Source of the DNA: an uncultured Anaerolineales bacterium
Lineage (GTDB): Bacteria > Chloroflexota > Anaerolineae > B4-G1
Reading direction: 5' to 3'
Assembly: GCA_964450435.1 (NCBI GenBank)
Contig: CAYVCX010000002.1
Span: 43,760 to 107,759 of the forward strand
DNA length: 64,000 nt
Shown here: piece after piece, positions 16,775-63,298 of the stretch
Layout: the number at the start of each line of letters is the position of its first letter
How positions within the stretch are numbered: position 1 is the first letter of the stretch
Made by a program: the position numbers and the translations under genes
The notes under the pieces: generated by a model
What the model saw: only the letters and a program-made list of their open reading frames with translations
Told to the model about the DNA's origin: nothing
The model's database searches: none

Positions 16775-16847
16775 GCGGCGAGGCGCCCGGGCGACTACCC
16801 GCCCAGGGGCCCGCGCGCTCGTGCTCCTGGCTTGAGTGGGTGACATT

Positions 16848-22576: not shown

Positions 22577-22654
22577 CTGGGCAGGGGAGCAGTGGATCAC
22601 CGACTGGATGCGCGAACGGACAATGAACAGACATATCAGGAAACGAGAGGGAAA

Positions 22655-25600: not shown

Positions 25601-25801
25601 CGCGGCGAGGATATGGGAGTCGGCAAGATCAAGGGAGCGGCATACATCGAACCGGGCCTCTGTCAGGGGTGCGGCACGTGCGTCGGTGAATGTCCGGCCA
25701 AAGCTATTCAGCTGATCAACTATCGAGACGAACAGATCATGGCCCATTCCCTGGGGAGCTGGATGCCGGAGGTCGTGGGTCAGGGAGAGTACAATGGATA
25801 A
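22655..25801 (+). CDS. hdrA: Tandem HdrA-like flavoprotein (about 1048 aa), same architecture as 11024-14092
   Basis: Motifs VLVVGGGVGGMRAA and FPTHDCVLC in the first half. Motif VFLCRCTPTLDG and a second GGGVAGMTAA in the second half. Ferredoxins at the C-terminus. Confidence 0.8.
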   Translation: MPLKTEHGTAGAVLVVGGGVGGMRAAIDAAEAGLKVYLLERLPWIGGRVAQLGYMFPTHDCVLCRGTADHGYGCTKPTISPALLDFNLHPNIEILNNSDLISVGGRAGDFTVTVRRRPTYVDADHCINCGICSAVCPVSLPSPFEEALKPRKAIYKMAPRAVPNTYIVDKVPRCETCRRCEAVCPTEAVHLDEREFEQELDVGAIILSVGFSLPDPGEYEELGHGRYPNVIHSMEYERLASRSGPTEGVVMRPSDGAEPDRIAWLQCIGSRDQKYPFCSSICCMYATKEAMVAKERIDDVRCQIFMMDERAFNKEFNAYYEQAREEYQIEYTRCRISEVKEDPDTHDLILRYPDDEGRMHEEQFDMVVLSVGAHPPNGSKDLANVLQIELNPYGFCETDKFAPLETSRPGIYVCGAFASPKEIAETILDAAGAVGDVTRLMREQVGRLPASREFPFLWRPDRLPAERDVSGEEPRVGVFLCRCTPTLDGVVDVDEVAGFAEAMPNVVHVRPVEYGCFEPGLDAIRSDIKEHGLNRVIVAACSHRTHEPLFQRTVREAGLNPYLLEMVNVREHCAWAHIDDPPGATRKAKELMRMALGRVLAAEPVHKLELRPVPRTLVIGGGVAGMTAALNVADAGYDVTLVERESELGGNLRNVYYVAEPENPQRLLRDLINRIIGHERIDLLTETELVSHRGRVGDFTSVLRNLRDGRIVETEVTHGATIVATGGREWRGDVYMLGRDPRVVTSEDLEDIIAHRPEEITDLEQVVFIQCVRPPGGVEYCSRICCTNTMKNANRIKMLNPSCQVVVLYQDIITYGFREAFYTEARERGVIFMRYDEEHLPDLRKVNGDLELTAWDPTLDRETTLRPDMLALSMAIEPSPGTEKLARILGVDLSSEGFFMEAHLKMRPMDFASEGIFFCGMAHYPKFIEDAIANAQAAAGRALTILSKDRLYIGGVIAEVDQDSCVGCLTCVRTCPFEVPEIRGEDMGVGKIKGAAYIEPGLCQGCGTCVGECPAKAIQLINYRDEQIMAHSLGSWMPEVVGQGEYNG

Positions 25802-26339: not shown

Positions 26340-29300
26340 ATGCAGCAAGTTGTCAAGCAGAGGAGTCCTATTGGTGCCGCGATGGTGGTCGGCGGCGGAG
26401 TCGCTGGCATTCAAGCGTCACTGGATATGGCGGAGGCCGGCTACAAGGTCTATCTGGTGGAGGCCAAGTCGGCCATCGGTGGGCACATGGCACAGCTGGA
26501 TAAGACCTTTCCCACCAATGACTGCGCCATGTGCATCATCAGCCCCAAGCTCGTGGATGCCGGTCGCCATCGCAACATCGAGCTGTTGGTCGATAGCGAG
26601 GTCATCGGGGTTCAGGGCGAGGCTGGGGATTTCGCCGTTCGTCTGCGCCAGAGGCCCCGTTACATCGACCTCGACAAGTGTACCGGCTGCGGCGACTGCG
26701 CCGATGTCTGTCCGGTCGTCATCCCCAGTCAATTCGACGAAGGATTGGCGGAGCAGCGGGCGGCTTACAAACTCTATCCGCAGGCTGTGCCCAACGCCTT
26801 TGCTATCGAGAAGCGGGGAGTCGCACCCTGTCGTGACGCCTGCCCGTCCGGGCAGCGTGCTCAGGGCTACATCGCCCTTATCCGGGAGGGGCGCTACGAA
26901 GACGCCCTGCGGGTCATTAAGGAGGACAACCCTTTTCCCGGCATCTGCGGCCGCATCTGCAATCACCGCTGTGAGGATGCCTGCAACCGGGGCAAGTTGG
27001 ATGAGCCGATCAACATTCGGGCGCTGAAGCGTGTCGTCACAGACAGGGTCTACGCCGAAACGCGAGCGCCTGTCCAGCCAGCGGAGCGGATCTACGACGA
27101 GCGCGTCGCCATCATCGGGGCTGGACCATGTGGGCTCACCGCAGCCCAGGATCTCTGTAAGGAGGGTTATGCGGTCACTGTCTTCGAGGCTCTCCCTGTG
27201 GCCGGCGGAATGCTCCGTGTTGGCGTTCCTGAATACCGCTTGCCCTCCGAGATCGTGGATCGGGAAGTCCGCGACATTGTCGATCTTGGTGTGGATCTGC
27301 GGCTGAATCGTCGGGTGGACAACCTGGATGAGGTTTTCGACAAGGGTTTCGACGCTGTGCTCGTTGCTGTGGGCGCTCACGAGGGCGTCCGGCCCCCCGT
27401 TCCCGGCGCCGACCAGGAGGGAGTGCTGGTTAGCACCGTGTTCCTGCGCGACGTGCGAATCGGCGAGCCACCGGAGCTGGGAGAGCGCGTCGCAGTCGTC
27501 GGGGCTGGTGATGTGGCGATGGACGTGGCCCGTACTGCCGTGCGGTTGGGGTCGGAGGTCCACGTCTTTTACCGCCGCCGGCGTCAAGACGCTACCGCTG
27601 CCGAGCAGGAGATCCGGCACGCCGCGGAGGAGGGAGTATCCTTTCACTTCCAGACCAATCCCACGGAGATCATCGGCGATGGTGACGGCAGGCTGAAAGG
27701 GATGATGTGCGTCGACACCGAGCCGGGAATGCCGGACCGGTCTGGCCGACCGCGCCCGGTTCCCATCCCCGAATCCGAGCACTTCGTCCCGTGCGACGAC
27801 GTCATCTTCGCCGTGGGCCAGCGCGCCGGCCTGGCTTTCATCCCGGAGAGCTCCGGCGTGGGCATCACGGATCAATCTACCATCGCGGTGAATCCCAACA
27901 CCATGGCTGCCACCCGCGAAGGCGTCTTCGCTGCGGGCGACGCTACAACTGGCACGGCCTTCGTCATCGAGGCGGTCGCTCACGGTCATAGAGCCGCCCG
28001 CTCGATCCACCGCTACTTGCGCGGCGAGGAGCTGGAGCCGCCACCCGAGCCGGACCTCCCCGTCGTGGAGCTGACCCAGGCGGAAATTGAGGAGCGTGTG
28101 ACCCGGGGCGAGGTCCAGGTTCAGCCCCGGGTGCCGATGGACGAGCTCTCGGTCGACGAACGGGTCTCCACCTTCCAGGAGGTGACGACGGGCTACACCG
28201 ATGAGCAGGCCCAGGCCGAAGCGGCCCGCTGCCTGGCCTGTGGGATCTGCTCCGAGTGTCTCAGTTGTGTCTATGAGTGTGAGGCCGATGCCGTCGTCCA
28301 CGACATGGTGGAGCAGGTGTATGATATCGACGTCGGCGCTATCCTTATGGCCCCCGGCTTTGAAGCTTATCACGCCGAGGGTTCGGCGGAGTACGGTTGG
28401 GGACGCTATCCTAATGTGATCACCTCCGTTCAACTCGAGCGGCTGCTCAATGCTTCTGGACCCACGCACGGTCACGCGCGGCGACCATCGGACGGGAGGA
28501 CGCCGAAGCGCATCGCCTTCCTCCAATGCGTCGGCTCGCGCGATCAGGAGCACGACTACTGTTCCTCTGTTTGCTGTATGTATGCCACCAAGGAGGCCAT
28601 TCTGGCCATCGAGCACGAGCCAGATACCGAGGTCACCATCTTCATGATGGACATGCGGGCCTTCAGCAAGGGCTACGAAGAGTACTATCAGAGGGCCCAG
28701 GACCGTTACGGCATCGAGTACGTCCGCTGTCGCATTTCCGAGATCAAAGAGGACCCAGACACCCACGATCTGCTGGTGCGCTACGTTGAGGGCGAAGGCT
28801 CGCAATTCGCCGTTCGCCACGCCCGGTTCGACATGGTGGTGCTTTCGGTGGGGATGGAGGTGCCTGAGAGTGTCCGTGATCTGGGCCAGCGGTTAGGCAT
28901 TGCGCTGGATGAGTATGGCTTCGCCCGGACGAACCCCTTCGCCCCCCTGGAGTCCAGCAAGGCGGGCATTTTCGCGCTCGGTCCGTTCCAGGAGCCGAAG
29001 GATATCCCTGAATCAGTGGTTCAGGCCAGCGGGGCGGCTGGCCTGGCCGGTGCGCTGCTGGCTCCCGCTCGTTGGACGCTGACGGAGGAGGAACCGTATC
29101 CTCCGGAACGAGACATCTCCCAGGAGGAACCTCGTGTCGGTGTCTTTATCTGCCATTGCGGCTCGAACATCGCTGGCTTCTTGGATGTGCCTGCCGTGGC
29201 CGAGCACGCCGGTATGCTGCCCGGGGTCGTCCATGCTGAACATAACCTCTACTCCTGCTCCCAGGATGCCATTCAACACATCACGGAGGTGACGAAAGAA

Positions 29301-30845
29301 CAGGATCTGAATCGCGTCGTGGTGGCCTCCTGCACTCCGTTGACTCATGAACCCCTTTTCCAGGATGCCATCCGGCAGGCGGGGCTCAACCCGGGCCTCT
29401 TCGAGATGGCCAATATCCGGAATCAATGCTCCTGGGTCCATCCAGATAGCTGGGAGGCCGCCACTGAGAAGGCCAGAGACCTTGTGCGCATGGCTGTGGC
29501 CAAGGCAGCTCGGCTGGAACCACTGCACAGGACGGAGATCGAGGTGGAGAAAGCAGCTCTGGTAATCGGCGGCGGAGCGGCTGGCATGAACGCAGCGCTG
29601 ACGCTGGCCCGGCAAGGCTTTCCTGTTCACCTGGTGGAGAGGGAGGACTGCTTGGGAGGCAATCTGCTCCACCTGCGCCGATCTCTGGAGATGGATCCGG
29701 GATCTGGGGAGCAGAGATGGCTTGATCCTCAGGAATATGCTGAGGATCTGGTGCGTGAGGTGATCGCGGAGCCGCTGATTACCGCTCATCGGAACACCCA
29801 ATACGTGGAGACGGATGGCTTCCTGGGCAATTTCACCTCCCGCCTGGAGGGAGGAGACGGGGAGTTCGAAATTCGTCACGGAGTCACAGTTGTTGCCACG
29901 GGGGGCGAGGAGTATCGTGGGCCGGAGTATGGCTATGGACGCGACCCTCGTATTATCACCCAGCAGGAGTTCGAGCAACGGCTGGATGAGGATGACGGTC
30001 TTCCCCACTCCGTGGTGATGATCCAGTGTATCGGTCCGGCTGAGCGATATTGCTCCCGCATTTGCTGCACCACCGCCCTGAAGAACGCGCTGCTGCTCAA
30101 GAAGCGCGACCCGCAGGCTGATGTGACAGTGCTCTACCGGGACATTCGCACTTATGGTTTCAGAGAGCGCATCTACGAGGAGGCCCGTCGGGCCGGGGTG
30201 ATGTTCGTACGCTACGACCTCGAAAACAAGCCAGACGTACAAGGTGAAAACTCGAATCTGCGGGTTGCGGTGCGTGAACCTGCACTGGCGCGGGACATCA
30301 TCCTTGAACCCGACCTGGTTGTGCTCAGTATGCCGGTGGTACCCTCCAGGGGAGCGAAGGAACTCGCGATGCGGCTCAAGACGCCCGTCGACCTCGATGG
30401 CTTCTTTATGGAGGCACACGTCAAGCTGCGCCCGGTGGATTTCGCCACCGATGGCTTCTTCCTGGCGGGGATGGCCCACTATCCTAAGTTCCTAGACGAG
30501 TCCATTGCCCAGGCGCAAGCTGCTGCCGCTCGGGCAGCAACCGTCCTGAGCCGCGACACGCTGGAGGTGGGTGGCATCGTCGCCCAGGTGGACGATGAGG
30601 AGTGCGTCGGTTGCCTGACCTGCGTCCGCATCTGCCCGTACGACGTGCCGCGGATCCGGACGGACCTAACCGGGGTGGGGGCCATCAGGGGCGCGGCCTA
30701 CATTGAACCGGCTCAATGCCACGGCTGCGGTATCTGTGCTGGAGAATGTCCTGCTGGAGCCATCGAATTGCTCCACTATCGACGCCAGCAGATGGAGGCC
30801 AAGGTCGCCGCGCTTCTGGAACCGGTTCCAGAAGCTGCCGCGTAG
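26340..30845 (+). CDS. Giant HdrA / GltD-like NAD(P)H oxidoreductase / HdrA fusion (1501 aa; HdrL-like)
   Basis: Residues 1 to about 150 are an HdrA FAD N-terminus with FPTNDCAMCIIS. Residues about 170-560 resemble the glutamate-synthase small subunit (motifs NPFPGICGRICNHRCEDAC, VAIIGAGPCGLTAA, GAGDVAMDVARTA, VFAAGDA). Residues about 870-1501 are a complete classical HdrA (VFICHCGSNIAG, GGGAAGMNAA, C-terminal ferredoxins). Confidence 0.8.
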   Translation: MQQVVKQRSPIGAAMVVGGGVAGIQASLDMAEAGYKVYLVEAKSAIGGHMAQLDKTFPTNDCAMCIISPKLVDAGRHRNIELLVDSEVIGVQGEAGDFAVRLRQRPRYIDLDKCTGCGDCADVCPVVIPSQFDEGLAEQRAAYKLYPQAVPNAFAIEKRGVAPCRDACPSGQRAQGYIALIREGRYEDALRVIKEDNPFPGICGRICNHRCEDACNRGKLDEPINIRALKRVVTDRVYAETRAPVQPAERIYDERVAIIGAGPCGLTAAQDLCKEGYAVTVFEALPVAGGMLRVGVPEYRLPSEIVDREVRDIVDLGVDLRLNRRVDNLDEVFDKGFDAVLVAVGAHEGVRPPVPGADQEGVLVSTVFLRDVRIGEPPELGERVAVVGAGDVAMDVARTAVRLGSEVHVFYRRRRQDATAAEQEIRHAAEEGVSFHFQTNPTEIIGDGDGRLKGMMCVDTEPGMPDRSGRPRPVPIPESEHFVPCDDVIFAVGQRAGLAFIPESSGVGITDQSTIAVNPNTMAATREGVFAAGDATTGTAFVIEAVAHGHRAARSIHRYLRGEELEPPPEPDLPVVELTQAEIEERVTRGEVQVQPRVPMDELSVDERVSTFQEVTTGYTDEQAQAEAARCLACGICSECLSCVYECEADAVVHDMVEQVYDIDVGAILMAPGFEAYHAEGSAEYGWGRYPNVITSVQLERLLNASGPTHGHARRPSDGRTPKRIAFLQCVGSRDQEHDYCSSVCCMYATKEAILAIEHEPDTEVTIFMMDMRAFSKGYEEYYQRAQDRYGIEYVRCRISEIKEDPDTHDLLVRYVEGEGSQFAVRHARFDMVVLSVGMEVPESVRDLGQRLGIALDEYGFARTNPFAPLESSKAGIFALGPFQEPKDIPESVVQASGAAGLAGALLAPARWTLTEEEPYPPERDISQEEPRVGVFICHCGSNIAGFLDVPAVAEHAGMLPGVVHAEHNLYSCSQDAIQHITEVTKEQDLNRVVVASCTPLTHEPLFQDAIRQAGLNPGLFEMANIRNQCSWVHPDSWEAATEKARDLVRMAVAKAARLEPLHRTEIEVEKAALVIGGGAAGMNAALTLARQGFPVHLVEREDCLGGNLLHLRRSLEMDPGSGEQRWLDPQEYAEDLVREVIAEPLITAHRNTQYVETDGFLGNFTSRLEGGDGEFEIRHGVTVVATGGEEYRGPEYGYGRDPRIITQQEFEQRLDEDDGLPHSVVMIQCIGPAERYCSRICCTTALKNALLLKKRDPQADVTVLYRDIRTYGFRERIYEEARRAGVMFVRYDLENKPDVQGENSNLRVAVREPALARDIILEPDLVVLSMPVVPSRGAKELAMRLKTPVDLDGFFMEAHVKLRPVDFATDGFFLAGMAHYPKFLDESIAQAQAAAARAATVLSRDTLEVGGIVAQVDDEECVGCLTCVRICPYDVPRIRTDLTGVGAIRGAAYIEPAQCHGCGICAGECPAGAIELLHYRRQQMEAKVAALLEPVPEAAA

Positions 30846-45061: not shown

Positions 45062-46405
45062 ATGACCGGTGAAGAGGCTGATATGGTGGACACGGGACAT
45101 CTGGAGGATGAGCAACGGCCGACGGATGTCCTCGTCATCGGTGGGGGCATCGCCGGCATCCAGGCGTCGCTTGATCTGGCTGAGATGGGCGTGCGTGTGC
45201 ATCTGGTGGAGAAGAGCCCCACTATCGGCGGGCGCATGGCTCAACTGGACAAGACCTTTCCCACGAACGACTGCTCCACCTGCATCCTCTCGCCGAAGAT
45301 GGTCGAGTGCGACCGGCATCTCTATATTACGATCCATACCCTCTCGGAGGTCCAGGCCGTGACGGGTGAGGCGGGCGATTTCACGGTCCGGGTGTTGAAG
45401 AGAGCCCGCTTCGTGGATGAGCACGCCTGCACGTCCTGCGGCGACTGTGCCAAGGTGTGCCCCGTCGTCAGGCGGGATGAGTTCCAGATGGGTCTCTCAA
45501 CGCGGCGGGCAATCTACATCCCCTTCCCGCAGGCCGTACCCCAGGCGTACGTCAGAAATCCTGATGACTGCCTGGGCGACGAACCGATGGTGTGTGGGCG
45601 CTGCATCGAGGCGTGCAGCAAGGGCTGTGTCGACTTCGACATGCAGGACGAGATAATTGAGCTTTCGGTTGGTGCGATCGTAGTGGCGGTCGGTATGGAG
45701 ACATTCGATCCGGAGGCACTGACCGAGTACGGTTACACGCGCTATGATAATGTTATCACCGGCCTGGAGTTCGAGCGCTTGATCTGTGCCAGCGGACCCT
45801 CCGGTGGGCGTCTCATCCGCCTCACCGATCGCCAGGAGCCGAAGGTGATCGGTTTCATCCAGTGCGTTGGCTCCCGCAATCTCAAGTATCAGAGGTTCTG
45901 CTCCTCAGTCTGCTGCATGCACGCCACCAAGGAGGCCGTTCTCGCCCGCGAGCACATCCCGGATGTCCAGTCGCACATCTTCTACACCGACCTGCGCGCT
46001 TCTGGCAAGGGCTTCCGCCAGTACATTGACCGCGCCAGGGAGGAGTACGGCGTCGAATACATCCGCAGCCGCGTGGCGCAGATCGAGGAAGACGAGGACG
46101 GTCAGCTGGTCTTCCACTACGAGGACACGGCGACGTCCCGTCCTCAGGAGATGAGGGTCGATCTGGCTGTGCTGGCCACCAGTGTCATGCCGGGCCCGGG
46201 TGTGGCAACCCTGGCTGAGGTTCTCGGCCTCGAGTTGGACGAGTATGGTTTCTTCGAGACGAATCCCTTTTCGCCAGTGGACACCACGCGGGACGGAGTG
46301 TATGCCTGTGGGTGTTGTCGTGCTCCGGTTGACATTCCACAGGCGGTGGCTCAGGCCAGCGGTGCGGCGGCACGGGCGGCACAGGTGGTAGGCGCCAGGC
46401 GATGA
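45062..46405 (+). CDS. hdrA: HdrA-like FAD protein, short N-half type, with intact FPTNDCSTCILSPK motif
   Basis: Motifs VLVIGGGIAGIQAS and DKTFPTNDCSTCIL. Its stop overlaps the next start (ATGA). Confidence 0.8.
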   Translation: MTGEEADMVDTGHLEDEQRPTDVLVIGGGIAGIQASLDLAEMGVRVHLVEKSPTIGGRMAQLDKTFPTNDCSTCILSPKMVECDRHLYITIHTLSEVQAVTGEAGDFTVRVLKRARFVDEHACTSCGDCAKVCPVVRRDEFQMGLSTRRAIYIPFPQAVPQAYVRNPDDCLGDEPMVCGRCIEACSKGCVDFDMQDEIIELSVGAIVVAVGMETFDPEALTEYGYTRYDNVITGLEFERLICASGPSGGRLIRLTDRQEPKVIGFIQCVGSRNLKYQRFCSSVCCMHATKEAVLAREHIPDVQSHIFYTDLRASGKGFRQYIDRAREEYGVEYIRSRVAQIEEDEDGQLVFHYEDTATSRPQEMRVDLAVLATSVMPGPGVATLAEVLGLELDEYGFFETNPFSPVDTTRDGVYACGCCRAPVDIPQAVAQASGAAARAAQVVGARR

Positions 46406-48168
46406 TCGATACACCCCGTGTCGGCCTCTTCGTCTGCCACTGCGGCACCAACATCGCGGGCCACGTGGATGTGGAGGCTGTGGCCGACTACGGACGTACG
46501 TTGCCGGGCGTAGTCTTCGTCCAACGCAACCTGTACACCTGCTCCGACGCCGGCCTGCGGGAGATCAAGGAGGCCATCGCCAATGAGAGGTTGGATCGTG
46601 TGGTGGTCGCCGCGTGCACGCCTCGTACCCACGAGCCGCTGTTTCAGGAGGCGTGTCGTGAGGCGGACTTGAATCCCTACCTGCTCGAGTTCGTCAACAT
46701 CCGCGATCAGTGCTCCTGGGTCCATATGCAGGAGCCGGAGGCGGCTACCCAGAAGGCCCGGGATCTGGTGCGTATGGGAGTGGCTAAAGCGCATCTCCTG
46801 GAGCCACTGGAGGAGCACGAGGTGCCGGTGGAACCGGCGGCGCTGGTAATAGGTGGAGGAATGATCGGTATGACGGCAGCGCTCAGCCTGGCCAACCGCG
46901 GCTTCGCGGTCATGCTGGTGGAGCGCGAGCCAGAGCTGGGCGGTATGATGCTGCACCTGCACAAGCTCTACCCCACGCAGGAGGACGCACGGAAGGTGGT
47001 CCAGGAGCGCATCAGCCAGGTGCGGCGGCACGGCGGCATCGAAATCTTCACCTCTTCGGTTGTGAGCAGCGTAAAGGGCTTCGTGGGCAACTACGAAGTG
47101 ATGATCGAGGGAGTGGGGCCCGGGAAGGCTGGTGCTGCCGAGAGGACGGACGATCCTGGCCCGCCTGCCGACGCACCGGTCCATCGCTCCGCCACAGCCG
47201 GAGCCATCATCGTCGCCACCGGGACGAGCGTCCTTCAACCGGAAGGGATGTACGGCTACGACGGGAAGCGCGTCGTCACGCAGTTGGAGCTCGAGGAGCG
47301 CTTCAGGTCGGATGAGCTCGACGTGGACCGCGTCGTGATGATCCAGTGCGTGGGGGCCCGCTGTGCGGAGCGCCCTTACTGCTCCCGGATCTGTTGCACG
47401 ACGGCGATCAAGAATGCGCTGGAGATCAAGGACCGCTGTTCCGATGCGGAGGTCTACATCCTGTACCGGGATGCTGAGACGCAGGGCACGCGCTACGAGG
47501 CCTACTACGGCCAGGCCCGCGAGGCCGGCATCCAGTTCATCCGCTATGACACCGAGCGCCCGCCAGAGGTCCTGGAGGAGCGCGTATTGGTGTACGACGA
47601 GATGCTGGGGGCCAGGCTGAGCATTCCCTGCGATATGGTCGTGCTCTCCACGCCGTTGGTGGCCCCAGAGGGCGCGCATGAGCTGGCCCAGACGCTGAAG
47701 GTGCCCGTGGACGAGCACGGCTTCTTTCTGGAGGCCCACGTCAAGCTCCGGCCGCTGGATTTCGCCACCGACGGCATCTATGTGGCCGGCACCGCCCGTT
47801 GGCCCTCTCACCTGGAGGAGACGATCACCCAGGCCTATGGCGCGGCGGCGCGAGCGTCTACCATCCTCTCCAAGGAGCACGTCACATCATCGGGCATTGT
47901 GGCGCAGGTGGACGAGCATCTGTGCCGGGGCTGTGGCCGCTGTGTGGAAATCTGCGAGTTCGGTGCGCCGTCTCTGAAGGAGAGTTTGTCCGGGGGGAAC
48001 GTGGCTCACGTCAGTGCAGTGATGTGCAAAGGATGCGGAGCCTGTGCCTCGGTCTGTCCCACCGGCGCGATGCATGCCCGGCACTTCACGGATGAACAGG
48101 TCACCGCGATGGTCCGGGCGGCGCTCGAGCCGGCGCCGTCGTTTTTCGCCCTGGAGGCTGGTTCATGA
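46402..48168 (+). CDS. hdrA: HdrA (classical order) with a degenerate FAD-site motif (LHKLYPTQEDARKV)
   Basis: N-terminus VGLFVCHCGTNIAGHVDV, then GGGMIGMTAA, and C-terminal ferredoxin motifs (CRGCGRCVEICE, CKGCGACASVCP). Confidence 0.8.
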   Translation: MIDTPRVGLFVCHCGTNIAGHVDVEAVADYGRTLPGVVFVQRNLYTCSDAGLREIKEAIANERLDRVVVAACTPRTHEPLFQEACREADLNPYLLEFVNIRDQCSWVHMQEPEAATQKARDLVRMGVAKAHLLEPLEEHEVPVEPAALVIGGGMIGMTAALSLANRGFAVMLVEREPELGGMMLHLHKLYPTQEDARKVVQERISQVRRHGGIEIFTSSVVSSVKGFVGNYEVMIEGVGPGKAGAAERTDDPGPPADAPVHRSATAGAIIVATGTSVLQPEGMYGYDGKRVVTQLELEERFRSDELDVDRVVMIQCVGARCAERPYCSRICCTTAIKNALEIKDRCSDAEVYILYRDAETQGTRYEAYYGQAREAGIQFIRYDTERPPEVLEERVLVYDEMLGARLSIPCDMVVLSTPLVAPEGAHELAQTLKVPVDEHGFFLEAHVKLRPLDFATDGIYVAGTARWPSHLEETITQAYGAAARASTILSKEHVTSSGIVAQVDEHLCRGCGRCVEICEFGAPSLKESLSGGNVAHVSAVMCKGCGACASVCPTGAMHARHFTDEQVTAMVRAALEPAPSFFALEAGS

Positions 48169-48201
48169 TGCCCGTTGGATACCGGGCGTCGCGCATTCTC
48201 G

Positions 48202-49863: not shown

Positions 49864-50406
49864 GTGAACGCTTCGCAGAAGGCGGGAATGACCGACGCTA
49901 CGGAATCAGTCTTCGACGTTAGCACCTTCGCCCCCGGCTTCCGCGACGAAATCGCGGCCGAGCGGGGCGGGGGGCACATCCGGCGCTGCTTCTCGTGCAG
50001 CACGTGCACTGCCGGCTGTCCGGTGGCCAGCGTCACCGACAAGTACAATCCCCGCCGCATCGTCCACATGGCGCTGCTGGGGATGCGCGACCAGGTGTTG
50101 ACCAGCGATTTCATCTGGCTCTGCTCGGTCTGCTACACGTGCTACGAGCGCTGCCCGCAGGACGTGCGCGTCCCGGAGCTGATGAACGCCATCCGCAACA
50201 TCGCCGTGCGGGAGGGGTGTGTCCCTCCGACCTTCACAAGACAGATAGAACAACTGCGGGACCACGGTCGGCTCTTGGAGATTGGCGACTACGAGAACGA
50301 GCGGCGGGCGCGCTACGGGCTGCCTCCCATTGAAGAAGCGGCGCTGGAGGTGCGCGAGATCTTGAACAGAACGCGCCCCCAGAAGCGTTCGGAGGACGGG
50401 CCGTGA
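49864..50406 (+). CDS. hdrC: Heterodisulfide reductase subunit C
   Basis: Motifs CFSCSTCTAGCP and CSVCYTCYERCP. It overlaps the hdrB start by 4 nt. Confidence 0.8.
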   Translation: MNASQKAGMTDATESVFDVSTFAPGFRDEIAAERGGGHIRRCFSCSTCTAGCPVASVTDKYNPRRIVHMALLGMRDQVLTSDFIWLCSVCYTCYERCPQDVRVPELMNAIRNIAVREGCVPPTFTRQIEQLRDHGRLLEIGDYENERRARYGLPPIEEAALEVREILNRTRPQKRSEDGP

Positions 50407-51335
50407 GCGGGCGATACGCGCTGTACCTGGGCTGTTCCGTCCCGGTGCGCGGGATGAACTACGAGATGTCGGCGCGCCGGGTAGCCGGGCAGCTCGACAT
50501 CGAGTTGAAGGACATTGATGGCTTCACCTGCTGCGGCTTTCCGGCCAGGCCCCTGGACTGGGAGGCAGGGCTGCTTATGGCCGCCCGCAACCTGGCCCTG
50601 GCCGAGGCGCAGGGGCTGGACATCCTGACGCTCTGCAGCGCCTGCACAGGGACGCTCACCGAGGCCAACCATGGACTCCGCGATGACGCTGAGCTTCTTG
50701 CGTGGGCCAATGAGGAGTTGGCCGATATGGGCCATCGGAACTCGGCGCCCCCACCAGAGGCTTATCGGGGAACGGTGCGCGTGCGTCACTTCGCCCGGGT
50801 GTTGTACGAGGAGGTCGGGGTCGAGACTCTGCGCAAAGAGGTCGCGGCAAGCGCAGGCGGCGAGCAGCTACTGCAGGGTTTCCGATTTGCACCGCACTAC
50901 GGATGCCACTACTTGAAGCCCTCTCATATCTACGACGGGTTCGATGATCCAGAGAATCCGCAGAGCCTGGATCGGCTCATTGAAGCCACCGGCGCGGGTG
51001 TGGTGCGCTACGAGGACGAGGGACAGTGCTGCGGGGGCGGCCTCCTCGGATTCGACGAGGCGACGGCGCTGCTGATGACGGGTCAGAAGCTGGAGCACGT
51101 GACTGAGGCCGGGGCTGACGCGATGGTGCTCGTCTGTCCGTTCTGCGCTATTATGTACGAGGCGAACCAGCGGCGGGTGGAGAAGCTCCACGGGGCCAGT
51201 TACGGACTGCCGGTGCTCTATTACCCGCAGATCCTCGGCCTGGCGATGGGCTTCTCCATGGAGGAAATGGGGATCAAGCTGAACCGGGTGAAGCCCCGCA
51301 AGTTGATCGAAACGTTGCGTGCAAGGGAAGGATGA
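50403..51335 (+). CDS. hdrB: Heterodisulfide reductase subunit B
   Basis: Motif YLGCS followed by CCG domains (CCGFP, CCGGGL, CPFC). Confidence 0.8.
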   Translation: MSGRYALYLGCSVPVRGMNYEMSARRVAGQLDIELKDIDGFTCCGFPARPLDWEAGLLMAARNLALAEAQGLDILTLCSACTGTLTEANHGLRDDAELLAWANEELADMGHRNSAPPPEAYRGTVRVRHFARVLYEEVGVETLRKEVAASAGGEQLLQGFRFAPHYGCHYLKPSHIYDGFDDPENPQSLDRLIEATGAGVVRYEDEGQCCGGGLLGFDEATALLMTGQKLEHVTEAGADAMVLVCPFCAIMYEANQRRVEKLHGASYGLPVLYYPQILGLAMGFSMEEMGIKLNRVKPRKLIETLRAREG

Positions 51336-51405
51336 AGGGCAGGAATCACGCGAGGGGATATGGCTGGTCCGTAGGCAGTCCCTCTCGTGTTGAGGAGGTG
51401 CGACA

Positions 51406-54015
51406 TTGGGCGATAACGAGCTAGAGAGAGGCGACGCTGTCCGCATCGGCGTCTTCGTCTGCGACTGCGGCCTGAACATCGCTGGCAGCGTGGACACCGC
51501 CGCCGTGCGAGAGTATGCTGAGTCTCTGCCGGACGTGACGGTGGCGGTGCGCAATCGCTACACCTGCGCCGATCCCGGGCAGCAAGAGATCAAGCAGACG
51601 ATCGTGGAGCACAACCTCAACCGGGTGGTGGTCGCTTCCTGCTCGCCCCGGCTCCACGAGCCCACCTTCCGGCACTGCGTGAGTGAGGCAGGCCTCAATC
51701 CCTACCTGTTTGAGATGGCCAACATCCGCGAGCACTGCGCCTGGGTCCACCTCCAGGATCGCGAGGCGGCCACGCGCAAGGCCAAGGATATCGTCCGGGT
51801 GGCCGTGGCTCGCGCCCGCTGGCTGCACGCTCAGGACGAGGAGCGGTTTCCAGTCACCGACGCAGCGCTGGTCATTGGCGGAGGCGTCGCCGGCATCCAG
51901 GCTGCCCTCGACCTGGCCGATGCCGGTCACCAGGTCTACCTGGTGGAAAAAGAACCGTCCATCGGGGGGATCATGGCGCGACTGGACAAGACGTATCCCA
52001 CAATGGACTGTAGCATATGAATCCTCGGCCCCAAAATGATGGATGTCGGTCGACATCCAAAGATCGAATTGATGGCCTACAGCGAGGTCGAGGACGTCTC
52101 CGGCTACGTCGGTGATTTCAGGGTGCGGGTACGGCGAAAAGCCCGCTATGTCGATGAGGCCGAATGCACCGCCTGCGGGGACTGCTCCGACGTCTGCCCC
52201 GTCGTCATGCCGGATGGGTTTCAGGCCGGCCTCTCCACCCGCCGGGCGATCTACATCCCCTTCCCCCAGGCCGTCCCCTCGTCCTACATCGTCAACGCGG
52301 ACGAGTGTCTGGGCAGCAACCCGATCGCCTGCGGTAAGTGCGTCGAAGCGTGCGACAAGCAGTGCATCGATTTCGATATGCAGGATGAGATCGTGGAGCT
52401 GCAGGTGGGCGCTGTCATCGTTGCCACCGGCATGGAGACCTACGATCCCACGCCCCTGGACGAGTACGGCTACACCAGCTACGAGAATGTGGTCACCAGC
52501 CTGGAGTTTGAACGACTGATCTCGGCGGAGGGGCCGACCGAGGGGCATTTCGTTCGGCCTTTGGATCGAGAGCAGCCCCGGCGCGTCGGCTTCGTGCAGT
52601 GCGTCGGCTCGCGAACCTTGCCCTCGCAATCGAACCCCGAGGGACAGCGCGGCAACCCGTACTGTTCCAACATCTGCTGCATGAACACTGTCAAGGACAG
52701 CCTGCTGCTCAAGGATCATTACCCGGACACGGACATCACGGTCTTCTACATGGACATCCGCGCCTTTGGCAAGGGCTTTGAAGATCTCTATCGGCGCTCG
52801 AAAGCTCAGGGCGTCCGCTACATCCGCGGCCTGCCGGGCGAGGTGGAGGAGGATCCGGGGACGGGGAATCTCACCGCGTACGTAGAGAACACCACCACCA
52901 GCCTCCTGGAGGAGCACGAGCTGGACATGCTGGTGCTTTCTATAGGCGCTGTTCCCCGAACGGAGACCGATCCGGTGCGCCAGCTTCTGACTCTGTCCGT
53001 CAGTGAGGATGGCTTTCTGATGGAGGCTCATCCCAAGCTGAAGCCGGTAGACACCCCGACTAAGGGGGTCTACATTGCCGGCTGCGCAGAGGCGCCCAAG
53101 GACATCAAGGACTCGGTCACCCAGGCGAGCGCGGCCGCCGCGCGCGCCGAGGTGCTGCTCAACGCGCCGCAGATCGCGGTGGAGGCGATCACGGCTGTGG
53201 TGGACGAGGATCTGTGCAAGCAGTGCGGGCAGTGTGCCGAGGTGTGCCCCTTCTCGGCCATCGTCTGGGAGAAGAAGCAGACAGCCCGCGTCATCAGTGC
53301 AGCGTGCGCTGGCTGCGGCACCTGCGCCGCGGAGTGCCGCTTCGATGCCATTACGATGCGGCACTTCACCGATCAGCAGATCTACGCTATGGTCGACGCC
53401 ATTCTGGATGACGACCCGGTGGACAAAGTGGTCGCCTTCGCCTGCAACTGGTGCTCGTACGCCGGCGCCGACACAGCCGGTACGTCGCGCCTGCAGTATC
53501 CTCCCAACGGCTATGTCATCCGCACCATGTGCTCCGGGCGTGTCAAGCCAGACTTCGTGTGGCATGCCTTCCAGAAAGGAGCGCCCGTCGTGCTGGTATC
53601 AGGTTGTCATTACGCTGATTGTCACTACATCGACGCCAACCGCAACGCGGTGCGCCGCGTGGACGCACTGTGGGAAGGACTGGAGAAGCATGGCGTCGAC
53701 CCACGGCGGCTCCAGCTTGATTGGTGCAGCGCGGCCGAGGGGCAGAAATGGGCCAGGATCATGCGGGAGCTTGAGGGTCTGCGGGCCGGCGTGACAGATG
53801 AAGAAGTTGAGGAGGCCAGGGATGCGCTGAAGGGCCAGCGAGTGCCCCGCCGCAGCGAAGTCTGGCGGCTGAAGGGGCCAACCGCGGCCAGTATGATCTG
53901 CTATCGCTGCGGCAACGAGTGGGAGGACACGTTCGACCCGTCCGCCGACCGGGAGCGGATGTGCCCGTCCTGCCGCAGCAACAGCGTGCGGGTGCTGCCG
54001 GACGGGAGGGAATAG
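51406..54015 (+). CDS. hdrA: HdrA-MvhD fusion with an in-frame TGA (52018-52020) at the second Cys of the DKTFPTxDCxxCIL motif; putative selenoprotein (869 aa if read through). Also carries a C-terminal zinc ribbon
   Basis: Listed ORFs 51406-52020 and 52036-54015 share a frame with no other stop. The local sequence is DKTYPTMDCSI-[TGA]-ILGPKMMDVG. A SECIS-like hairpin with a GGTC apical loop lies 20 nt downstream. The C-terminal 200 aa is an MvhD domain (FACNWCSYAGADTAG, GCHYADCHY). TTG start after a GAGGAGGTG RBS. Confidence 0.65.
52041..52058 (+). promoter_or_regulatory. SECIS-like hairpin GGATGTC-GGTC-GACATCC downstream of the in-frame TGA
   Basis: A perfect 7-bp stem with a GGTC apical loop, the same loop sequence as the E. 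coli fdhF SECIS. Read directly from the sequence. Confidence 0.45.
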
Positions 54016-54205
54016 GAGGGTTCGCACCTCTCTTGCGCTCGCGGCGCGGCGCACGGCGCGCCCATCGAGCCGACCCCGATCGAGGCGCTGTCCGCCCTCC
54101 TGGCCGACTGTTCTTGGGTTGGGCCTGATCGTCGCCGTCTTCGCCGGCTGTACCGTCCGTAAGTTCACCCGATAGACCAGACCATCTCACTGGAGGATTG
54201 GAACC

Positions 54206-55510: not shown

Positions 55511-55644
55511 CTGGATGACTACGACCCTTGGGGTTTCGTGATGCCCTGCGCTGGGCCAGCTCCCCTGCTGGCCCGCAGCGACACACCTGTCCGGGGCTTG
55601 CTCGAAACCCTGAGGGTCTTTTGTCCGGGCTGCCGCCCATTCCT

Positions 55645-55672
55645 TGTCCCCCATCCCTGCCTGTGCTACAAT
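55645..55672 (+). promoter_or_regulatory. Weak sigma70-like promoter candidate (TTGTCC, 16 nt spacer, TGcTACAAT) upstream of the hydrogenase genes
   Basis: An extended -10-like element in the 277-bp gap before the hydrogenase small subunit. Confidence 0.2.
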
Positions 55673-55787
55673 TCAGGACGTGCTCCTGCTGGATGACAAT
55701 CCAGCAGCTTCGCTGATAGCAGACTCGCCCGAAGACGACCACTCACCGTGGTTGCCGCCGCTGTTGCACGCATCGACCGAGGAGATT

Positions 55788-56636
55788 ATGGAGCGATTTG
55801 CCGTACTCCAGCTTTCCGGCTGCGCTGGATGCGAGGTCGCGCTCCTCAACGCCGGGGACTGGGTGGAGAAGCACCAGCTCACCTACATGCCCCTCATCAT
55901 CTCGGCCTACGATGTGCCGGAGGTCGAGACGCTGCTGGTGAGCGGCGGCGTGCGCACCGAGGAGGACCACTACAACCTGCGCCAGGCGGTCCGCTGTGCG
56001 GATCGGGTCGTGGCTGTCGGCACCTGCGCCATCTCGGGCGGCGTGGCCAGCCTGGGCAACCGGGATGAGGTGCGCGAGATTTTCCTCGCCGAGGAGGAGC
56101 GGCGCCACGTCCCGCGCCTGCTCCCCCGCTGCCGTCCCATCGACGCCGTCGTCGAGGTCGATCTCTACGTGCCCGGCTGCCCTCCCACGCCAGAGCTCTT
56201 CATGGCCATGCTCTCCGACGATCCCGACTTCCAGCCCGGCAGAAACGTCTGCCGGGAGTGCGGGCGCAAGAAACTCCGCGATATGCGCCCTCAGCACCTG
56301 ACCGGGTTTCAGAAAGGCGAGGTACTGCCCGACATCTGCCTCATCAACCAGGGCTATCTCTGTGTCGGCTCCTCGGTACGCGGCGGCTGCCGCGCCCTCT
56401 GTACCCGTCCCGGACATCAGTGCGTTGGCTGCCGCGGGCCGTCCGATGCCTTCATAGAGAAGGAGGCCGAGGCCTGGTTGACCAGCATCAAGCGCGTCTT
56501 CGAGTCAATGACCGACATTCCGGAGGAGGAGCTCGATCGAGAGCTGCGCTCGCCCCAGCTGGCGCTCTTCCTCTTTCAGTTCTCCGACTATGCCGCGCCG
56601 GAGCGCCCGCCCAGACCCAAGGAGAAGATGCTCTGA
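55788..56636 (+). CDS. mvhG: NiFe hydrogenase small subunit (MvhG-like, group 3 type)
   Basis: Motifs LSGCAGCEVALL and VGTCAISGG, and distal Cys clusters at the C-terminus. A GAGGAG RBS precedes the ATG at 55788. Confidence 0.75.
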   Translation: MERFAVLQLSGCAGCEVALLNAGDWVEKHQLTYMPLIISAYDVPEVETLLVSGGVRTEEDHYNLRQAVRCADRVVAVGTCAISGGVASLGNRDEVREIFLAEEERRHVPRLLPRCRPIDAVVEVDLYVPGCPPTPELFMAMLSDDPDFQPGRNVCRECGRKKLRDMRPQHLTGFQKGEVLPDICLINQGYLCVGSSVRGGCRALCTRPGHQCVGCRGPSDAFIEKEAEAWLTSIKRVFESMTDIPEEELDRELRSPQLALFLFQFSDYAAPERPPRPKEKML

Positions 56637-56637
56637 C

Positions 56638-57963
56638 ATGGCCACCCTCACCTTTCCCCTGAGCCGCATCGAAGGGCATGCCCGGGTGGTCATCGAAGTG
56701 CACGGCGGGGAGATCGTCTCCGCCCATTTCGAGGCCATGGAGATTCGCGGTTTCCGCTACTTCGTCCTCGGCGTCCCCGCCGAGCAGATGCCCACCATCG
56801 TGCCGCGCATCTGCGGCGTCTGCTCCACCGCCCACCACGTGGCCGCCGTCGAGGCCCTGGAGGACGCCTTCGACGTCACGCCGCCGAACCTGGCCCGCAC
56901 GATCCGCGAGCTCCTCCTCCTGGGCCAGATCATCCAGAATCAGGCCACCTCGGTCTTCCTCTTCACCATGCCGGATCGGCTCGGCCTTTCCAGCATGTTC
57001 CTGCCCGGCGACGAGGCCGGCCGCGAGCGCGACCGGGCTGTGCTGGCCACCCGGGCTCTGCGGGTGCGCCAGGCCGGCACCGACCTGATCTCCCTGGCTG
57101 GCGGTCAGTTCATCCATCCCATCAAGGCTGTCGTCGGTGGGGTGACCAGCGGCATCGAGCCCCAGGCCGCGTCCGACCTGCGGGACCAGCTGATCGAGAC
57201 CATCCCGGTGGCCTGCGAGCTGTTCGACTACTACTGGGAGCAGTCGTACGCCCTCCGGGATCGCATCGGCACCTGGGGCGACGACGCCCCTGCCCATTAC
57301 ATCACCGCCACCGCCGATCACTGCCCCAACTATGACGGTGTCGGTGCCGAGCCCATCATCCGTGTGCTGGATCCCAACAGTATGGCGTGTGAGACCTTCT
57401 CCGTTCGTTCCTTTCGTGAGGTCCTCACCTTCGAGGAGACCGATTACAGCTATGCCGGCCGCACCAGCTACCAGGGCCACGTGATGCGGGCCAACAGCCT
57501 GGCGCGCGTCAACATGACCGACCATTTCGGCACCCCGTGCGCGGACCGCTACCTGAAGCGCTTCCGAGAGGCCTTCGGTCATCCGGCTCACGCCATTCTG
57601 CTCTACGACCTGGGGCGCGGCATCGAGTTGGCCTACGCTCTGGAGCGGGCCGTCGAGATCCTGCAGCAGCCCCTTGACCGGGGGGAGTCCGCTGTCCCTC
57701 ATACCCCCCGCGACGGGGAGGGATACGGCCTGGTGGAGGCACCCCGCGGCCCTCTCATCCACCGCTACCGCATCCGGGACGGCCTCATCGACGATGCCGA
57801 CTTCATCATCCCCACCGTGCACAACGCCCTGGCTATCGAGCGCGCGCTCCGTGTGGCGGCCCGGCGCTACATCACCCCGGAGCGCGTCGATATGGAGCTG
57901 GAGCGCGCCGTGGGACGCGTGGTCCGCGCCTTCGATCCCTGCATCGCCTGCGCCACCCATTGA
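56638..57963 (+). CDS. mvhA: NiFe hydrogenase large subunit (MvhA-like). It ends at the His of the C-terminal DPCxxCxxH motif
   Basis: Motifs RIEGH and RICGVCS near the N-terminus. C-terminal DPCIACATH is followed directly by the stop. The start lies 1 nt after the small-subunit stop. Confidence 0.85.
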   Translation: MATLTFPLSRIEGHARVVIEVHGGEIVSAHFEAMEIRGFRYFVLGVPAEQMPTIVPRICGVCSTAHHVAAVEALEDAFDVTPPNLARTIRELLLLGQIIQNQATSVFLFTMPDRLGLSSMFLPGDEAGRERDRAVLATRALRVRQAGTDLISLAGGQFIHPIKAVVGGVTSGIEPQAASDLRDQLIETIPVACELFDYYWEQSYALRDRIGTWGDDAPAHYITATADHCPNYDGVGAEPIIRVLDPNSMACETFSVRSFREVLTFEETDYSYAGRTSYQGHVMRANSLARVNMTDHFGTPCADRYLKRFREAFGHPAHAILLYDLGRGIELAYALERAVEILQQPLDRGESAVPHTPRDGEGYGLVEAPRGPLIHRYRIRDGLIDDADFIIPTVHNALAIERALRVAARRYITPERVDMELERAVGRVVRAFDPCIACATH

Positions 57964-62464: not shown

Positions 62465-63298
62465 ATGATAACAAATAATATAGAAATCGCCCTGGGCCTG
62501 GGCCCCAAGGCCGCTTCCCTGCTCGCCACGCTTGCCGGGCAAGGGAAGCGCATTTTCACTACCCAGGAGGCCCAAGAAATCCTGGGCGGCTCGCGCGCGT
62601 CGACCTATAAGCTGCTCCACGATCTGGTGGAGAAGCGCTGGCTTCAGTCGTTAAGCAAGGGGCAGTACCTTATCGTTCCCCTCGGGGCAGGCCCAGACCG
62701 CCGGTATACCGTGCACGAGTTTCTCATCGCCCACCATCTCGCTCCCGACGGGTACATCGCCTACTGGACGGCTCTGCACCGTCACGGATTGACAGAGCAG
62801 ATTCCGCGCACGGTTTGGGTTGCCACACCCAGGCGTCGGAAGACCAGGGTCGTATCCGGCGTCACGTATGAGTTTGTCACCCTCCGGCCCTACAAGATCT
62901 TCGGTCAAGAATCGGAGTGGATTGAGGCAGAAGCCGTTCCCGTGGCTGACCTGGAAAAGAGCTTGGTAGACGGGCTCGACCATCCCGGGTACTGTGGAGG
63001 AATCCCCGAGGTGGCGAAGGCCATTCACACGGCGTGGGCCGAACAAGAGATCGGCCTGCAGCGGCTGACTGACTATGCCAATCGAATGCGCAACCGGGCC
63101 ATCTTCAAGCGCCTCGGGTACCTGGTCGAGCTGATGTCGCTTCCGGCGGATGGGTTTCGAGAGATCTGGCAGGGAGCGCTTTCCAAGGGATATGCCCAAC
63201 TGGATCCTACACGCCCGGAGGAAGGACGGTTCGATGGGCGGTGGCAGGTACAGGTCAATGTGCCCGAAGCCGAACTTGTCGGATGGATGGAGGGGTGA
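62465..63298 (+). CDS. abiEi: AbiEi-family antitoxin / transcriptional regulator (type IV TA system, COG5340-like)
   Basis: An N-terminal wHTH followed by the characteristic C-terminal domain, 277 aa. It is immediately followed by an AbiEii-like nucleotidyltransferase. Confidence 0.7.
   Translation: MITNNIEIALGLGPKAASLLATLAGQGKRIFTTQEAQEILGGSRASTYKLLHDLVEKRWLQSLSKGQYLIVPLGAGPDRRYTVHEFLIAHHLAPDGYIAYWTALHRHGLTEQIPRTVWVATPRRRKTRVVSGVTYEFVTLRPYKIFGQESEWIEAEAVPVADLEKSLVDGLDHPGYCGGIPEVAKAIHTAWAEQEIGLQRLTDYANRMRNRAIFKRLGYLVELMSLPADGFREIWQGALSKGYAQLDPTRPEEGRFDGRWQVQVNVPEAELVGWMEG

Follow-up and report, generated by a model that had tools for sequence, protein, structure and literature searches.

The subject of this analysis is a 64-kb stretch of contig CAYVCX010000002.1 from an uncultured Anaerolineales bacterium (the whole of which is termed here the window) and, within it, a gene for an HdrA-related protein that is interrupted, in conventional translation, by a TGA codon. 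This codon, at positions 52018-52020, sits in frame: it closes one open reading frame (ORF) at 51406..52020 and is followed by another at 52036..54015, and the peptide around it reads DKTYPTMDCSI*ILGPKMMDVGRHP, where the asterisk stands for the TGA. When the TGA is read through, the 870 codons of 51406..54015 yield a single protein of 869 residues, with a putative selenocysteine (Sec) at codon 205. A preliminary description of this DNA had drawn attention to the two same-frame ORFs, parted only by a TGA that falls inside an HdrA signature, and both their coordinates and their frame have been verified. Because 23 of the window's 46 annotated genes stop at a TGA, the standard genetic code applies, and reading through this particular TGA needs a local recoding signal; a genome-wide reassignment of UGA was rejected on the same count. 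When the window was scanned for other in-frame TGAs lying between long open stretches, all of them proved to be either ordinary stops or off the annotated frame.

For profile and domain searches the putative Sec was entered as cysteine. The read-through product matches the NCBIfam family NF040770 ('CoB-CoM heterodisulfide reductase HdrA2') with a score of 1174.8 bits, as compared with a curated cut-off of 1100, such that residues 13-798 align with profile positions 1-773 of 777. Over residues 12-669 it matches the solved HdrA of Methanothermococcus thermolithotrophicus (5ODC_A; phmmer E 4.9e-239), it aligns also with the HdrA chain of Methanococcus maripaludis (9sfi_A; E 1.4e-199), and over residues 673-789 it matches the MvhD chains 5odc_D and 9sw2_D (E about 1e-37). 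Pfam signatures of oxidoreductases that bind flavin adenine dinucleotide (FAD) or pyridine nucleotides (Pyr_redox_2 and FAD families) are found at residues 154-199, and a 4Fe-4S dicluster domain (Fer4) at about residues 597-651. The NF040770 match, together with that to the Pfam MvhD family (Table 1), bears out the HdrA-MvhD fusion that had been described at the outset. A C-terminal zinc ribbon, which had been described as well, stands in part: a CxxC-X19-CxxC tail is indeed present within the last 38 residues, beyond the NF040770 profile, though its match to a zinc-ribbon family is sub-threshold only. A CxxC..CxxC tail occurs in 66 of the 79 complete C-termini among orthologues carrying the TGA, and in at least one orthologue with cysteine at this site (P0085) too.

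The TGA lies opposite Cys197 of 5ODC_A and opposite the non-standard residue X197 of 9sfi_A, as expected if the codon occupies the Cys/Sec column of HdrA, which is where it had been placed from the signature alone; the CxxU motif thus formed, C202-S-I-U205, is aligned with C194/C197 of 5ODC_A. In a cryo-electron microscopy structure of the M. maripaludis Hdr-Vhu-Fwd assembly, published in 2026, Sec197 of HdrA lies beside the FAD and is paired with a cysteine, for which pair a selenylsulfide relay was proposed (PMC13518236). Inasmuch as the TGA lies at the position of this Sec197, the site is homologous to an experimentally observed selenocysteine.

Beginning 20 nt past the TGA is a hairpin with a perfect 7-bp stem and a GGUC apical loop (Table 1), the stem of which is lengthened in the window to 8 bp by an extra U52040-A52059 pair, and which folds locally with -11.8 kcal/mol. 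Equivalent stretches of four cysteine-containing paralogues within the window (the genes starting at 11024, 14140, 26340 and 45062) form no such hairpin, their best local folds being different structures of lower stability (-4.7 to -9.3 kcal/mol). The published consensus model of the bacterial selenocysteine insertion sequence (bSECIS; PMC13188914, Fig. 2A) specifies an in-frame UGA within a coding region, with Cys in homologues, that is followed by a stem of 4-16 bp and a loop of 3-9 nt with a G among the first two loop positions (usually then G/U), the distance from UGA to loop being 16-37 nt and the minimum free energy <= -7.5 kcal/mol. Here the loop is of 4 nt, with G at both its first and second positions; the stem length falls within the specified range; 27 nt (52021-52047) separate the UGA from the loop; the folding energy lies well below the limit; and TGC or TGT is found at the aligned codon in five paralogues within the window and in 55 orthologues. 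The earlier designation of this hairpin as SECIS-like agrees with the model at each of these points.

The apical GGUC had also been likened to that of the Escherichia coli fdhF SECIS, the sequence of which (TGACACGGCCCATCGGTTGCAGGTCTGCACC...) was found within fdhF in 5419 of the 5426 E. coli genomes, and the likeness holds: both are hairpins that lie soon after the UGA, within the coding sequence, and that expose a GGUC at the apex. They differ in that the stem in the window is perfectly paired over its 7-8 bp and in that the UGA-to-loop distance is 27 nt here and 18 nt as counted on fdhF. Since the site is explained by a bacterial-type hairpin within the coding sequence, an archaeal-type SECIS (with its GAA_A bulge, in the 3' untranslated region) is not needed; the stretch behind the gene, 54016-54205, was covered by the Rfam scan of the window.

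Orthologues were gathered in two ways. A scan of one genome per species gave 80 loci (the best match being 91% identical), most of which come from metagenome-assembled genomes (MAGs) of Anaerolineae/Anaerolineales, while others are labelled Chloroflexia, Caldilineae, Desulfobacterales/Desulfosarcina, 'Cytophagia', Eiseniibacteriota and Fidelibacterota; among these, TGA occurs at the aligned codon in 82 of 82 orthologous copies (that is, the 80 loci plus two second copies). A metagenome scan, in which a Cys form served as the query and the search patterns lay outside the TGA/hairpin region, gave 55 orthologues with Cys (TGT/TGC) and 24 with TGA. Altogether, 107 TGA orthologues were obtained from about 100 MAGs and metagenome contigs, mostly of Chloroflexota and some of other phyla. 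In the 79 species compared over both sides of the TGA, a single frame runs throughout, with a mean identity to the window protein of 80% before the codon and 73% after it; both parts of the gene in the window are intact, with 88-91% identity to its nearest relatives.

In the pooled set, all seven standard pairs and the GGTC loop are present in 107 of 107 TGA forms as compared with 0 of 55 Cys forms, which is more than chance would give. Since the peptide MMDVGRHP is conserved in Cys orthologues as well, the Cys forms are needed as a control for constraints imposed by the protein. Among sequences encoding exactly MMDVGRHP, the 92 TGA forms are restricted to the codons GAT, GTC, GGT and CAT, whereas the 37 Cys forms show C or T at the first and the last of these four sites and each of the four bases at the two between them. 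Across the TGA forms, variation at third codon positions is free as far as +17 and again from +41, and is absent within the hairpin. The GGUC loop is likewise invariant in all 107, including its U, which is the third base of a glycine codon and as such is constrained neither by pairing nor by the protein; this invariance fits a sequence-specific recognition of the loop.

Substitutions within the stem point the same way. Among 103 distinct sequences, the one pair that varies appreciably is U-A in 81, U-G in 14 and a compensatory C-G in 8, and never is C opposite A; one further pair shows a single G-U. Thus 721 of 721 pair cells are standard (8 of them compensatory C-G and 15 of them wobble), whereas in a control, with the partner column shifted by one to three positions, only 17-57% were standard pairs. 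RNAalifold, applied to the 103 sequences with no prior input, predicts the same hairpin. Selection therefore acts on the RNA structure itself, apart from the peptide that it encodes.

Protein databases tell a related story. The matches at 79-89% identity are all about 620-668 residues long, cover 71-76% of the query and start just past the TGA, whereas the matches at 63-68% identity are full length (805-865 residues), those with names being HdrA2 of Dehalococcoidia/Chloroflexota. That the closest database proteins are shortened so as to start past the TGA is the usual mark of an unrecognised selenoprotein gene.

Judged from these comparisons of sequence, the UGA at 52018-52020 is very probably decoded as selenocysteine, served by a bacterial SECIS hairpin, in a protein of the HdrA2 type. 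The alignments and the orthologues together thus favor what the preliminary description had proposed, namely a Sec codon at the conserved flavin-site cysteine of an HdrA-MvhD fusion with a GGUC-loop SECIS. Several points weigh against this interpretation. Selenium incorporation is, for this clade, a prediction. One of the six search patterns used in the species scan was the peptide KMMDVGRH, which favors recovery of that peptide, though not of any particular choice of codons; and the Fisher probability of about 1e-44 for the presence of the hairpin in TGA versus Cys forms is uncorrected for shared ancestry. The hairpin lacks the bulged U of the E. coli fdhF SECIS. None of 4227 Rfam models matches it, either at gathering thresholds over the whole window or with E up to 10 on 51900-52200, a result that carries little weight, as the coverage of coding-region bacterial SECIS elements in Rfam was left unchecked (these searches returned only a chance, sub-threshold match to DUF2693-FD on the minus strand). 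Finally, no selA, selB, selD or tRNA-Sec gene was found within the 64-kb window, using tblastn with E. coli SelA, SelB and SelD and using ARAGORN, nor did ARAGORN find a tRNA-Sec in 60 related loci.

Relatives lend indirect support. Over the window and 160 loci together (1.67 Mb), the tblastn search gave a sole match, to a SelB in a Deltaproteobacteria MAG (L058:12610-14508, minus strand). This SelB is full length (residues 1-608 of E. coli SelB, 30% identity, E 5e-81) and lies directly 3' of the Sec-HdrA2 gene of that organism; tRNA-His and tRNA-Arg genes follow it, at 14990-15144. Single-cell genomes of Anaerolineales have been reported to encode both SelB and Sec-containing formate dehydrogenases (PMC4959059).

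The history of the site was examined on a tree of 156 orthologues, built from identity distances by the unweighted pair group method with arithmetic mean, on which Sec is the root state and Sec/Cys switches number at least three, the count being a rough one. Such switching accords with the dynamic exchange of Sec and Cys that earlier work describes for the HdrA family. Three TGA forms (L088, L115 and L120, with the TGA at 1595-1597 in each) fall within the Cys group and retain an intact hairpin, preceded by KMT or KMA in place of KMM; the hairpin is lost both in L082, which is the nearest Cys relative of L088 (13% diverged), and in L081, which is the closest to L115 and L120 (18%). Such a placement suggests repeated, independent replacement of Sec by Cys, rather than regain of Sec. 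In two 'Cytophagia' MAGs, L060 and L072, there is besides a second TGA-bearing HdrA paralogue (TGA at 3723-3725 and 3427-3429, respectively), of different architecture, with only 65-69 residues before the TGA and about 960 after it, which carries the same GGATGTC-GGTC-GRCATCC hairpin.

The explanation that best survives alongside Sec decoding is nevertheless improbable: the UGA might be read through outside the Sec pathway (for example, by near-cognate insertion of Trp or Cys), or the Sec machinery might have been lost in this organism, leaving a gene that is not fully functional while its relatives use Sec. Although the search of this genome for Sec machinery covered its 64-kb window, and although Sec/Cys switches are frequent in the family, the hairpin in the window equals the 107-sequence consensus and is undecayed, whereas it is soon lost in Cys forms, and the gene is intact on both sides of the codon, at the close identity to its nearest relatives given above. 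Moreover, had the machinery been lost, one would expect selection for a change of TGA to TGY, such as the Cys clade shows.

Very unlikely is a genuine split gene, in which ribosomes would terminate at the UGA and begin anew at the AUG at 52036 or 52039 to give proteins of 204 and 659 residues, with the hairpin serving termination-reinitiation. Two ATG codons do lie 15-20 nt past the TGA, and public gene callers do record the downstream part as a separate protein; yet the Met-Met that they encode is found equally in the uninterrupted Cys forms, and the stretch upstream of the ATG at 52036, when inspected, showed no Shine-Dalgarno motif comparable to that before the TTG start at 51406. The break falls exactly at the codon of a conserved redox cysteine, at which a solved structure has Sec (PMC13518236), so that a split would sever the FAD domain within the CxxC motif, parting its two residues; and in 107 of 107 orthologues the frame is the same, with no variation by gap or overlap. 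An error of sequencing or assembly, or a recent mutation that made the gene a pseudogene, could not be excluded as the source of the TGA from a single window alone. Both are effectively excluded by the recurrence of this TGA across 107 independent assemblies, which represent several phyla and protein identities down to about 65%, by purifying selection on both gene parts, and by a hairpin that accompanies TGA forms only.

On the interpretation that UGA encodes Sec, the following sequence of events may be envisaged. The hairpin downstream of the UGA would bring SelB-Sec-tRNA(Sec) to the ribosome with the UGA in the A site, such that, through this recruitment, one 869-residue polypeptide would be made. 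The predicted product is a flavo-iron-sulfur protein of the HdrA2 type, consisting of an HdrA core, an MvhD domain and a small Cys4 tail, in which Sec205 and Cys202 would form a CxxU pair next to the FAD, at the position of Sec197/Cys197 in methanogen HdrA. Together with HdrC and HdrB, encoded upstream, it most likely would form a cytoplasmic, flavin-based electron-bifurcating module of the HdrABC type, which would serve the Wood-Ljungdahl metabolism encoded across the window and which an Mvh-type [NiFe] hydrogenase may feed. Bacteria of this kind are not known to make coenzyme M or coenzyme B, and the family name, heterodisulfide reductase, probably misdescribes the true substrate of the window protein.

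The coordinates of the gene, of its recoding elements and of neighboring genes are collected in Table 1.

Table 1. Features of the predicted Sec-HdrA2 gene and of its surroundings (window positions).
Feature	Position	Strand	Basis
Read-through coding sequence of the predicted selenoprotein: HdrA core, MvhD domain, CxxC..CxxC tail	51406..54015	+	Translation
UGA codon, taken as Sec205	52018..52020	+	Alignment with Cys197 of 5ODC_A and X197 of 9sfi_A
Cys202 codon (TGT), Cys partner in the CxxU motif	52009..52011	+	Alignment with Cys194 of 5ODC_A
Shine-Dalgarno-like GAGGAGG, 7 nt 5' of the TTG start at 51406	51392..51398	+	Direct reading of the sequence
Predicted bacterial SECIS hairpin: 5' arm GGATGTC 52041-52047, loop GGTC 52048-52051, 3' arm GACATCC 52052-52058	52041..52058	+	Folding and comparative evidence
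Fused MvhD/FlpD domain, residues 675-789	53428..53772	+	Pfam PF02662, E 4.5e-44
C-terminal CxxC-X19-CxxC tail, zinc-ribbon-like	53899..53973	+	Sub-threshold Pfam Zn_ribbon_8, E 1.7e-4, 21.9 bits vs cut-off 34.4
hdrC-like gene, directly 5' of hdrB and two genes before hdrA2; probable partner subunit	49864..50406	+	Pfam Fer4_8 etc.; TIGR03290 E 8.7e-32, below cut-off
hdrB-like gene, two CCG domains, immediately 5' of hdrA2; probable partner subunit	50403..51335	+	Pfam CCG E 1.2e-24; TIGR03288 E 5.3e-75, below cut-off
Further upstream same-strand genes: HdrA-like (two), mvhD, fused HdrCB-like	45062, 46402; 48175; 48642	+	Pfam/NCBIfam
Mvh/Vhu-type [NiFe] hydrogenase genes: small subunit 55644-56636, large subunit 56590-57963	55644..57963	+	Pfam Oxidored_q6, NiFeSe_Hases; best NCBIfam VhuG, VhuA, below cut-off

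As is characteristic of HdrA2, the gene has hdrB and hdrC adjacent to it, with NCBIfam scores for HdrB and HdrC that are under the equivalog cut-offs. In 15 of the 80 related loci, orthologues of these hdrC and hdrB genes (median identity 72%) precede the hdrA2 gene on its own strand, and in 55 of the 80 a fused HdrCB-like gene does so instead. The HdrA-like gene at 46402-48168 ends in a TGA that is followed two codons on, in the same frame (48166-48174), by the TTG start of mvhD; this TGA looks like an ordinary stop between neighboring genes.

The [NiFe] hydrogenase genes lie 1.6 kb downstream of hdrA2, with a class-III aminotransferase gene in between. The large subunit ends in DPCIACATH, that is, with Cys and not Sec, which rules out its identification as a NiFeSe enzyme. 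Linkage of hydrogenase and hdrA2 genes is seen in 1 of the 80 related loci, and it is possible, as we infer from gene order in the window, that this hydrogenase is the electron-input partner of the MvhD domain.

The preliminary description had stated that every intact HdrA paralogue in the window has cysteine at the aligned site. This holds for the four motifs that it quoted (CSSCIL at 14305, CSTCIL at 45272, CAMCII at 26523 and CGICLM at 11225), each of which has TGC at the aligned codon, and for a fifth paralogue, at 22592-25801, in which the motif reads DCVLC. It fails for the paralogues at 16836-18602 and 46402-48168, which lack both motif cysteines and have LESVSD and QEDARK, respectively, at the aligned positions; the proposed relay between Cys and Sec or Cys is therefore impossible there. 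Three of the Cys-bearing paralogues are large HdrA-derived fusions (26340-30845, 11024-14092 and 22592-25801, of 1501, 1022 and 1069 residues), each with two FAD/NAD-binding modules plus ferredoxin domains, and they resemble the HdrL-type fusions of Desulfobacterium.

Further genes within the first 45 kb encode CFeSP subunits, RACo, CooC-like ATPases, a pterin-binding methyltransferase, FolD, two MetV/MetF pairs and a pyruvate:ferredoxin oxidoreductase (POR), which confirms the Wood-Ljungdahl locus that had been recognized earlier; many Hdr paralogues and a fumarase are encoded there as well. At the far end of the window, an ORF at 62465-63298 that is unrelated to the Hdr and Wood-Ljungdahl genes matches an AbiEi antitoxin C-terminal domain (E 2.3e-9).

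By pointing to the Sec-containing HdrA of Methanococcales, the preliminary description had implied that a bacterial counterpart would be new. It is not: by 2006, HdrA was already the fourth largest selenoprotein family of bacteria, with 16 genes from Moorella, Carboxydothermus, Syntrophobacter, Syntrophus and others (PMC1794560); Desulfobacterium autotrophicum encodes Sec-HdrA, Sec-HdrL and Sec-MvhD (PMC2702500); and a 2026 review files the HdrA selenoprotein family, with its CxxU motif, under NF040770, which models HdrA2, that is, an HdrA-MvhD fusion (PMC13188914). The fusion itself is likewise known, from Methanosarcina and Archaeoglobus (PMC2702500). Hence the window gene is a new, mis-annotated member of the established Sec-HdrA family and leaves the known picture unchanged; what is particular to it is its Anaerolineales-like Chloroflexota host, the Cys4 tail and the shortening of public gene calls throughout its clade.

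Three groups of relatives help to place it. With the HdrA of methanogens (Sec197 in M. maripaludis, Cys197 in M. thermolithotrophicus) it shares a full-length HdrA core, the location of the CxxU or CxxC motif by the FAD and an association with MvhD; it differs in that MvhD is fused to it and followed by the Cys4 tail, in that its signal is a coding-region hairpin of the bacterial type rather than an archaeal SECIS in the 3' untranslated region, and in that its host, a bacterium, shows no evidence of coenzyme M or coenzyme B. With the Sec-HdrA proteins of bacteria (Moorella thermoacetica, Carboxydothermus hydrogenoformans, Syntrophobacter fumaroxidans and D. autotrophicum) it shares the in-frame UGA (PMC1794560, PMC2702500), an occurrence in Wood-Ljungdahl or syntrophic anaerobes, and links to mvhD and hdrBC-type genes; in those bacteria, however, MvhD is mostly a separate gene, and often itself a selenoprotein, whereas in the window it is fused and all-Cys, and Anaerolineales-like Chloroflexota are not among the described hosts (PMC1794560, PMC2702500). 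With the HdrA2 of Methanosarcina acetivorans, as represented by NF040770, it shares its domain architecture and the adjacent hdrB and hdrC; the methanogen protein is a Cys enzyme that works with F420H2 or ferredoxin and CoM-S-S-CoB, whereas the window protein has the predicted Sec205, the gene order hdrC-hdrB-hdrA2 and a zinc-ribbon-like tail beyond the profile.

HdrA2 genes with TGA and SECIS are seen in classes of Chloroflexota, in Desulfobacterota, in Fidelibacterota, in Eiseniibacteriota and in 'Cytophagia' MAGs. A broader proposal, which is offered tentatively and is rather doubtful as a whole, is that those with the Cys4 tail might constitute a distinct, laterally spread bacterial subfamily, in which Sec is ancestral and Cys repeatedly derived and in which an 18-nt SECIS, its unforced loop U included, is kept invariant across phyla, and that the member in the window might act as the bifurcating flavin subunit in an H2-dependent HdrC-HdrB-HdrA(U)-MvhD-[NiFe] hydrogenase complex. 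If this is true, an H2-dependent complex of the Mvh-Hdr type would provide the Wood-Ljungdahl pathway of uncultured Anaerolineales with low-potential electrons.

The consequences for annotation are more immediate. In a collection of 5.8 billion proteins, all close relatives are stored as shortened products that start past the TGA and that thereby lose the N-terminal Fe-S domain and the FAD-binding motif; because of such records, the selenoproteomes and Hdr inventories of Anaerolineae MAGs that bear the Wood-Ljungdahl pathway are systematically undercounted. Moreover, pairs of TGA and Cys orthologues that encode the same peptide constitute a clean natural experiment on the requirements of a bacterial SECIS, which points to pairing of the stem, to its closure by C-G and to a GGUC loop in which the U does not vary. 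For the organisms themselves, the predicted Sec-HdrA2 would imply a selenium requirement in the energy metabolism of uncultured subsurface and sediment Chloroflexota.

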